Shown here in pieces: positions 27,686-29,620 of a stretch of 64,000 nucleotides of DNA (position 1 is its first letter; every line of letters begins with the position of its first letter). The stretch lies in NCBI RefSeq assembly GCF_055900595.2, contig NZ_CM148325.1; one strand, given 5' to 3'. The notes beneath the pieces are model-generated. The model searched no databases, was not told the origin of the DNA, and saw only the letters and a program-made list of their open reading frames with translations. A program made the position numbers and the translations under genes.

Positions 27686-29161
27686 ATGTCCAGTCAATAT
27701 TTACGTATTTTTCAACAGCCACGTTCAGCCATATTGCTGATTCTGGGTTTTGCTTCCGGGCTACCGCTCGCCCTGACATCCGGCACCTTACAGGCCTGGA
27801 TGACGGTCGAGAATATCGATCTTAAAACCATTGGTTTCTTCTCTCTGGTAGGCCAGGCTTACGTTTTTAAATTCCTCTGGTCACCGCTGATGGACCGCTA
27901 CACGCCCCCATTTTTCGGGCGGCGGCGCGGTTGGCTGCTCGCCACGCAAATCCTGTTATTAGTCGCCATTGCGGCGATGGGTTTTCTCGAACCAGGCACC
28001 CAGCTCCGCTGGATGGCGGCACTGGCGGTGGTGATCGCTTTTTGCTCTGCCTCCCAGGATATTGTCTTCGATGCGTGGAAAACCGATGTGCTCCCGGCAG
28101 AAGAGCGTGGTGCGGGCGCGGCAATCAGCGTGCTGGGTTACCGTTTAGGGATGCTGGTTTCCGGCGGCTTAGCCCTGTGGCTGGCAGATAAATGGCTGGG
28201 CTGGCAGGGCATGTACTGGTTGATGGCGGCGCTGTTGATCCCCTGTATTATCGCGACGTTACTTGCACCAGAACCAACCGACACCGTTCCTGTGCCCAAA
28301 ACGCTGGAACAAGCGGTTGTTGCACCTCTGCGCGATTTCTTTGGTCGCAATAACGCGTGGCTTATTTTGCTTCTCATCGTGCTGTATAAGCTGGGCGACG
28401 CATTCGCCATGAGCCTGACAACCACTTTTTTGATTCGCGGCGTCGGATTTGATGCAGGTGAAGTAGGCGTGGTTAACAAAACGCTTGGCTTGCTGGCGAC
28501 CATTGTTGGCGCGTTGTACGGTGGGATTTTGATGCAGCGCCTGTCACTGTTCCGGGCGCTGCTGATTTTCGGTATTTTACAAGGTGCGTCTAACGCCGGT
28601 TACTGGCTGCTGTCGATTACTGATAAGCATCTCTACAGCATGGGCGCAGCCGTCTTTTTCGAAAACCTCTGTGGCGGGATGGGTACATCAGCCTTTGTCG
28701 CGCTGTTAATGACGCTGTGTAATAAGTCATTTTCCGCTACTCAATTTGCCCTGCTCTCAGCGCTTTCTGCTGTAGGGCGAGTTTATGTCGGCCCCGTGGC
28801 GGGTTGGTTTGTTGAAGCACACGGCTGGTCGACATTCTATCTGTTCTCCGTCGCCGCTGCCGTACCAGGGCTTTTTTTGCTGCTGGTTTGTCGCCAGACG
28901 CTTGAATATACACGAGTAAATGACAACTTTATCTCCCGTACTGAATATCCGGCAGGTTATGCCTTTGCCATGTGGACATTGGCGGCGGGCGTCAGCCTGT
29001 TGGCCGTGTGGTTACTGCTGTTGACGATGGACGCGCTGGATTTGACGCACTTCTCTTTCCTGCCTGCGCTGCTGGAAGTCGGGGTTTTAGTCGCCCTTTC
29101 TGGCGTCGTGCTTGGTGGTTTACTGGATTATCTGGCGCTACGAAAAACGCATCTGACGTAA
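27686..29161 (+). CDS. ampG: Muropeptide (anhydromuropeptide) permease AmpG, 491 aa
   Basis: Multi-TM MFS-type permease; recognised as AmpG; yajG-ampG arrangement. Confidence 0.93.
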   Translation: MSSQYLRIFQQPRSAILLILGFASGLPLALTSGTLQAWMTVENIDLKTIGFFSLVGQAYVFKFLWSPLMDRYTPPFFGRRRGWLLATQILLLVAIAAMGFLEPGTQLRWMAALAVVIAFCSASQDIVFDAWKTDVLPAEERGAGAAISVLGYRLGMLVSGGLALWLADKWLGWQGMYWLMAALLIPCIIATLLAPEPTDTVPVPKTLEQAVVAPLRDFFGRNNAWLILLLIVLYKLGDAFAMSLTTTFLIRGVGFDAGEVGVVNKTLGLLATIVGALYGGILMQRLSLFRALLIFGILQGASNAGYWLLSITDKHLYSMGAAVFFENLCGGMGTSAFVALLMTLCNKSFSATQFALLSALSAVGRVYVGPVAGWFVEAHGWSTFYLFSVAAAVPGLFLLLVCRQTLEYTRVNDNFISRTEYPAGYAFAMWTLAAGVSLLAVWLLLLTMDALDLTHFSFLPALLEVGVLVALSGVVLGGLLDYLALRKTHLT

Positions 29162-29174
29162 TCTGTAAATATTA

Positions 29175-29216
29175 TTTAGCCGTAGTAATCACTCGCCGTA
29201 ATTATTACGGCTAAAT
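29175..29216 (+). terminator. Long inverted repeat downstream of ampG (possible terminator or protein-binding site)
   Basis: tttagccgtagtaat ... attattacggctaaa: ~15-bp arms with one mismatch, not followed by a clear T-run. Confidence 0.4.
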
Positions 29217-29620
29217 AAACATCAACATCGCTTATTAATATTTGTTCTTCTGTGCGGCTTAGCGTCTGGAAATTATTGACGCCATTTATGAATTCTATTT
29301 TTCTTACACGATTCAGCTAATGAGTCTTTATTTTCTCACTACCCAGTTGTCACCTTAATGATAATTGTTTGTTAAATAATTGTTTTATTTTGTATTGGTT
29401 ATACCAATTGCCCGCCCAAACTCCTTCTGCACTCCCCTTTCGTTATAACGCCCTTTTGCAACAGCTTCTTAAAATCAACTTGATATGTTTTGCAACATAT
29501 GTGACCTGATAGCCAAATCCAAGTAACAGGAATTTAATCATGTTTACAGTAATGCAACCTTCCCGTAAAATGCCCACACACTTTAAACGCCACCAGATCC
29601 CGTGGAATTGAGGTCGTTAA

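Follow-up and report, generated by a model that had tools for sequence, protein, structure and literature searches.

Escherichia coli RNA polymerase needs a U-rich tail for efficient hairpin-driven release of its transcript. Another kind of transcript end was described by Dar and Sorek in 2018, who reported that Rho-dependent transcripts end just past stable stem-loops without U-rich tails, that such stem-loops protect the RNA from the exonucleases PNPase and RNase II, and that the rut sites lie downstream of them. The region considered here also borders a well-studied operon, cyoABCDE, which is repressed 65-fold by ArcA (PMC3798270) and regulated by Cra (PMC5888115). For PdhR, gSELEX placed AATTGGTataACCAATg between cyoA and ampG (PMC7660256), and for HprR a site has been published that is said to lie inside the cyo operon. 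Here, we describe a palindrome that follows ampG in this intergenic region, and compare it with these and other known systems.

The stretch of DNA that we analysed (64,000 nucleotides, hereafter the window) is from E. coli. The 601 bases around the palindrome were present in 5424 of the 5426 complete E. coli genomes, with 100% identity to strain Z0117EC0005 and 95-99% identity to most other E. coli genomes; only 10 E. coli genomes reached at least 99% identity across the 601 nt, and the window therefore represents a minority E. coli lineage. Gene names were taken from the RefSeq annotation of identical and near-identical (K-12-like) E. coli DNA. The muropeptide MFS transporter gene ampG is a 491-aa ORF on the plus strand (27686..29161) that ends with the stop codon TAA at 29159-29161, and cyoA, for cytochrome bo3 ubiquinol oxidase subunit II, is a 315-aa ORF on the same strand (29621..30568). 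The spacer between them measures 459 nt with 36.2% G+C, compared to 50.1% for the whole window, in good agreement with the AT-rich spacer of about 460 bp described in an initial sequence-only reading of this DNA. Two published signals fall within ampG itself. Adams et al. (2021) reported a strong ORF-internal 3' end at U00096.3 452393, together with a northern-detected sRNA, "ampG int", that forms RIL-seq chimeras with CyaR; this 3' end falls at about 28838 in the window, where its 61-nt context matches 28788-28848 with one mismatch. An RpoS-holoenzyme gSELEX peak (U00096.2 451740) falls at about 28715.

The palindrome consists of two arms, 29175-29189 (TTTAGCCGTAGTAAT) and 29201-29215 (ATTATTACGGCTAAA), which are complementary at 14 of 15 positions as DNA; the odd position has a G opposite a T, and all 15 positions therefore pair as plus-strand RNA. 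The inverted repeat with arms of about 15 bp that had been noted earlier extends to a helix of 18 bp (29172-29189 with 29201-29218), capped by two further pairs (29191-92 with 29198-99) and a 5-nt loop. The resulting RNA hairpin in the ampG 3' UTR (29172..29218, plus strand) starts 10 nt past the ampG stop codon. Its plus-strand fold reached -22.7 kcal/mol, compared to -7.1 +/- 2.4 kcal/mol in 200 dinucleotide shuffles (z = -6.6; 0 of 200 as good), with a stem that is A/U-rich (6 G-C among 18 stem pairs). As the earlier reading had stated, the palindrome is not followed by a T-run: none (at least 5 of 8) was found directly 3' of the stem, where the tail is AAACATCAACATCGC (ACAUCA as RNA), and a terminator scan of 28900-29900 returned 0 sites on either strand. 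An Rfam search of 28800-30000 (E <= 10) gave sub-threshold microRNA-precursor matches alone, as is usual for any long hairpin. The left arm carries a polymorphism at position 29181, which is C in the window (a C-G pair) and T in K-12 and most genomes, and 125 of the 5424 genomes were at least 99% identical to the window over a 62-nt hairpin query. The hairpin is single-copy, with one locus per genome in the 5424 E. coli genomes. A second "place" reported in the genome scan is most likely the palindrome matching its own other strand, and no second copy was found within the 64-kb window. Identity as a REP, BIME or ERIC element was rejected because the hairpin is single-copy.

The 3' end of the ampG transcript has been mapped in E. 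coli K-12. In the TRS analysis of RNAtag-seq data from cells in LB (PMC10687069, Supplementary Data 3), a "Primary" ampG 3' terminus was called at U00096.3 452002-452014, with the dominant position at 452007 on the minus strand and a 3' UTR of 64 nt (PMC10687069). The TRS signal at this terminus, defined as 1 minus the local read-through, was 0.79, and the adjusted p values from three libraries were 1e-32 to 1e-38. When folded by the authors themselves, the sequence upstream of the terminus gave exactly the hairpin described here (PMC10687069). Transferred via locus L001, the equivalent terminus lies at 29217..29229 on the plus strand of the window, and the dominant K-12 end falls at about 29224, 6-7 nt past the last stem pair. 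RNA 3'-end mapping downstream of ampG was the check that the sequence-only reading had proposed, with ampG transcripts reading through the palindrome unaffected as the outcome that would speak against it; the published primary terminus and its TRS signal do not show such read-through. Several other sources were searched for the same end. The Term-seq tables of Adams et al. list no 3' end at the hairpin, their bicyclomycin table has an entry inside ampG alone (453334) and none at the ampG 3' end, a coordinate search of the Cappable-seq supplements gave no match, and a search for literature linking ampG to bicyclomycin found none that was relevant.

By analogy with the transcripts of Dar and Sorek, we consider it likely that the hairpin is a stem-loop that lacks a U-tract and blocks exonucleases at the 3' terminus of a transcript that would depend on Rho. 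Mechanistically, the yajG-ampG messenger includes the palindrome, which folds into a stable A/U-rich stem-loop just past the ampG stop codon. Polymerase would most likely terminate farther downstream in the spacer, probably via Rho, after which 3'-to-5' exonucleases (PNPase and RNase II) may trim the RNA back until the hairpin blocks them, leaving a defined and protected 3' end at the mapped distance of a few nucleotides past the stem. The hairpin would in this way set the ampG 3' end and probably stabilise the mRNA. With respect to where Rho might act, the C/G ratio in 78-nt segments was 1.1-1.7 for starts at 29160-29260, 2.4 at 29280-29357, and 4.0 at 29400-29477, i.e., the first ~100 nt after the hairpin are only mildly C-rich and clearly C-rich, G-poor stretches lie 60-260 nt farther on. 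This weak C-richness and the lack of an ampG 3'-end entry in the tables of Adams et al. speak against the proposal, as does the apex of the stem, where the sequence of 12 bp is kept more strictly than a mere exonuclease barrier would call for.

The mapped end could also have arisen without trimming. If the hairpin alone (perhaps with NusA/NusG) released the RNA 6-7 nt past the stem, with neither a U-tract nor Rho, it would be a non-canonical intrinsic terminator, and two observations would fit this: the spacing between stem and 3' end is the one usual for intrinsic termination, and Adams et al. list no bicyclomycin-sensitive site at the ampG 3' end. We nevertheless regard this explanation as unlikely, given a tail of ACAUCA in place of a U-tract and a stem in which only a third of the pairs are G-C. 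The hairpin lacks a U-tract and is therefore not a canonical intrinsic terminator.

To place the hairpin in a broader context, we compared 80 Enterobacteriaceae loci containing ampG. In 71 species cyoA follows ampG, with a spacer of 450-491 nt in 62 of the 71 and a spacer lengthened by insertions in the other 9. The hairpin core, GTTGTAAT(C/A/T)AC-N5-G(T/A)AATTATAAC, was found after ampG in 54 of these 71 species; it was missing or degenerate in about 17 of the 71 that share the same gene order, and the hairpin is therefore dispensable. Covariation was scored on an ungapped alignment that was cut from a whole-spacer MAFFT alignment, such that the structure was not used in fitting. Over 62 species the score was 0.228, compared to 0.133 +/- 0.010 for shuffles (0 of 500 reached it) and at most 0.147 for slid partners; over the 49 core-keeping species it was 0.201 vs 0.104, and 12 of 20 pairs had changed on both sides. 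The compensatory variation lies mostly in the lower stem. The upper 10-12 pairs are near-fixed in sequence, apart from one U-A pair that has become A-U in E. coli and in one further locus (L082). RNAalifold with default scoring returned no consensus structure on 62, 49 or 40 sequences and failed already at 20, perhaps, as we would guess, through a few non-pairing species that make some column pairs inadmissible. With RIBOSUM scoring the same program recovered the helix (-20.8); averaged across the alignment, the energy of the proposed helix is -14.3 kcal/mol. We took the default null result as a technical weakness and, given that result, judged the pairing from explicit pair counts.

The position of the hairpin is conserved as well. 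Its distance to cyoA is near-constant (439-456 nt), even with insertions between ampG and the hairpin, and the loop length is constant across species. In some loci of Citrobacter, Raoultella and Enterobacter, true ERIC-like or REP-like elements adjoin the hairpin. ERIC-like insertions, which represent two Citrobacter events, separate it from the stop codon of ampG in L010 and L027 (3976-4262) and in L014 (3976-4121), and a G+C-rich REP-like insertion does so in L045 and L077 (3976-4040), from Enterobacter sp. 10-1 and Raoultella terrigena. These insertions leave the hairpin intact at its usual distance to cyoA, and since the hairpin is kept despite them, an insulating role for cyo fits as well as a role for ampG. 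In five species (L058, L068, L079, L080, and L083), cyoA was not found within 2.5 kb downstream of ampG, and in two of these (L058 and L068) ampG ends instead in strong canonical terminators that are GC-rich and T-tailed, a substitution that favours a 3'-end role for the hairpin. In Phytobacter ursingii (L083 3976-6470), ampG is followed by two convergent genes, whose translations, judged by eye, suggest a membrane protein with a J-domain and an Hsp70-like protein.

A near-invariant apex above a freely covarying lower stem could also mark a regulatory RNA element that is specifically recognised, e.g., a site for an RNA-binding protein (ProQ or another), a substrate of RNase III, or the 3' terminus of a regulatory RNA that stems from the ampG 3' UTR; both sequence and shape would then count. 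In line with this proposal are the G.U wobble in the apical stem (CCGUUGUAAU/AUUAUAACGG), itself near-invariant, and the constant loop length, as is the co-occurrence of the hairpin with two downstream blocks conserved across genera, ATATTTGTTCTTCTGTGCG (29238..29256) and CTGGAAATTATTGA (29266..29279), that were found by footprinting over 62 species. These blocks and the hairpin core were both present in 53 species, neither was present in 15, and 3 species were discordant, a pattern that is confounded by phylogeny. On the other hand, no Rfam family matched, full-text literature searches gave no link of ampG to ProQ or CLIP data, and E. coli has flipped a U-A pair to A-U inside the conserved part. 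Moreover, the neighbouring DNA sites are equally conserved at this depth, so slow divergence may suffice to explain the apex. We thus consider specific recognition of this kind quite improbable. A similarly low probability is given to a wider version, in which the hairpin would belong to a recognised RNA or DNA module that couples transcription of ampG, a gene of cell-wall recycling, to the control of cyo, or that yields a 3' UTR regulatory RNA; it is suggested by the near-invariant apex with its G.U, the constant loop, the fixed distance to cyoA, and the co-occurring blocks.

We then asked whether the palindrome acts as RNA or as DNA, and which of the two strands is involved. In 45 of the 49 core-keeping species, one pair is a G.U wobble. 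Overall, G.U pairs, which are possible in plus-strand RNA only, outnumbered A.C pairs, which correspond to pairing on the minus strand only, by 78 vs 16 (39 vs 16 without the fixed pair), and in 25 of 40 species the plus-strand fold had the greater stability (Wilcoxon p = 0.003). Similarly, the C-to-U allele of K-12 at 29181 preserves pairing on the plus strand only, as another G.U. Because the lower stem covaries, one G.U is near-invariant, and the wobbles favour the plus strand, we read the palindrome as an RNA element of the ampG transcript, and the evidence points to a conserved RNA hairpin and to neither a repeated element nor a symmetric DNA operator. The sequence-only reading had left the choice between a protein-binding site and an RNA-stability element. 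Its RNA half is supported by the covariation, the G.U pairs, the absence of a U-tract, and the K-12 3' end, and its protein-binding half is disfavoured.

An operator on the DNA would require a dimeric factor on the inverted repeat, acting as a far-upstream cyo site at about -400 from the start site. Such an operator would account for the distance of 439-456 nt to cyoA that persists where insertions separate the hairpin from ampG, for the sequence conservation of the apical arms, and for a related palindrome, CGTTATAACG, at 29441-29450. It would not account for the compensatory changes in the lower stem, and only plus-strand RNA makes sense of the conserved asymmetry at the G.T position and of G.U exceeding A.C by 78:16. 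The cyo regulators ArcA and PdhR also have their sites elsewhere, with ArcA ChIP-seq peaks at about 29377, 29456, and 29601 and the PdhR box at 29393-29409, none of them at the hairpin. An HprR/YedW box (CATTACAAAATTGTAATG) was considered since TTGTAAT is common to it and to the hairpin arm of other genera, and no match within 3 mismatches was found in the spacer. On the compensatory flips, the strand-asymmetric G.T, and a hairpin devoid of an ArcA peak, PdhR box, or HprR box (the three regulators compared), the DNA operator is unconvincing, and we hold it to be very improbable. A role on the minus strand, as the terminator or 3' end of an antisense transcript running from the cyo control region into ampG, is the least credible of all, for although that strand folds well in E. 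coli (-27.3 kcal/mol) and continues into the weakly U-rich AAUAAUAUUUAC, the conserved wobble becomes a C.A mismatch there, the wobble counts and the comparison of fold stabilities both speak for the plus strand, no terminator was called on either strand, no convergent gene is present, and the 3' end was mapped to the strand of ampG.

The roughly 400 nt of the spacer past the hairpin is the known cyoABCDE regulatory region. This agrees with the earlier suggestion that the AT-rich spacer is the multi-regulator cyo promoter, in that the sites published for ArcA, PdhR, and the promoter each have an exact counterpart in the window. In the footprint over 62 species, the conserved blocks coincide with the published sites, the whole promoter, and the 5' UTR. 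From upstream to downstream, a candidate Cra-like box, GCTGAATCGTGTAAGA (half-site GCTGAATCG), lies at 29302..29317 on the minus strand and was placed by its likeness to the Cra consensus; its core, CGATTCAGC, is present in 67 of the 71 species. The distal ArcA site cyoA3, with four direct repeats, follows at 29347..29389 (plus strand; -231 to -189 from the cyo start) according to the ChIP-seq and motif tables of PMC3798270, and the PdhR box AATTGGTATAACCAATA, from the gSELEX table of PMC7660256, lies on the minus strand at 29393..29409 and is fully conserved in the footprint. A comparison with mapped sites for cyoA had been proposed with ArcA and Cra among the regulators; for ArcA the sites were located, and for Cra the result is the consensus-based candidate box.

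Farther downstream, the footprint contains the conserved perfect palindrome mentioned above (29441..29450), near the ArcA ChIP-seq peak cyoA2 (about 29456), a peak without an ArcA box (PMC3798270). A 10-nt direct repeat, TTTTGCAACA, occurs twice, at 29454-63 and 29488-97, and its second copy lies within a palindrome, ATGTTTTGCAACATAT, followed by a conserved TGTGACC. The proximal ArcA site cyoA1 (-38 to -7) occupies 29540..29571 on the plus strand (PMC3798270 tables) and overlaps the sigma-70 promoter, for which the promoter scan gave a score of 10 of 12 on the plus strand (-35 TTTACA at 29543-29548 and -10 TAAAAT at 29566-29571). The numbering of the ArcA paper (PMC3798270) implies a start at about 29578, such that the cyoA 5' UTR spans 29578..29620 on the plus strand; it includes the Shine-Dalgarno sequence GAGG at 29610-29613 and is almost invariant over 62 species. 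Two small ORFs in the spacer, 29369-29509 (plus strand) and 29443-29577 (minus strand), overlap the regulator sites and indel-rich alignment columns. In E. coli EC529, ISApl1 (an IS30-like element; L003 1719-3251) is inserted in the four-repeat ArcA site at 29371-29373 of the window, and parts the hairpin and the distal portion of that site from the cyo promoter; it was the only such case among the matches listed (12 of 5424 genomes).

Given this arrangement, the termination zone past ampG may shield the cyo promoter, which lies 350 nt farther on under the control of ArcA, PdhR, and Cra, from ampG transcription, and the hairpin probably also shields this promoter from read-through. The finding as such is not new in kind and, for the most part, not in its details, because the ampG 3' end has been catalogued and the cyo control region is well characterised, and it is of little consequence beyond annotation. 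It nonetheless adds a specific and conserved case of a hairpin that marks a 3' end and lacks a U-tract, it makes it very doubtful that the palindrome is an unrecognised regulator site of the cyo operon, and it accounts for most of the conserved blocks between the two genes by published elements, namely those of ArcA, PdhR, Cra, and the promoter, with the Cra site a candidate.

Among known systems, the class described by Dar and Sorek resembles the ampG hairpin in having a stable stem-loop right after the coding sequence, no U-rich tail, and a precise 3' end just past the stem; it differs in that the sequence downstream of the ampG hairpin is weakly C-rich for the first ~100 nt, and any dependence on Rho and exonucleases here would be by analogy. 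Canonical intrinsic terminators likewise close the transcription unit with a hairpin and have, as at ampG, a 3' end 6-7 nt past the stem, whereas the ampG hairpin has no U-tract, an A/U-rich stem, and no call in the terminator scan. REP/BIME and ERIC elements share with it the nature of an extragenic palindrome in a 3' UTR that is able to act as an exonuclease barrier, and unlike them the ampG hairpin is single-copy, A/T-rich, and orthologous across genera. Finally, the cyoABCDE promoter region of K-12 (PMC3798270, PMC7660256) is the same sequence as that of the window, with 23 substitutions in 501 aligned bases, and both ArcA sites, the PdhR box, and the sigma-70 promoter can each be placed in the window; the differences are strain-level substitutions only, e.g., 1 base at the edge of the PdhR box and 2 inside the distal ArcA site.
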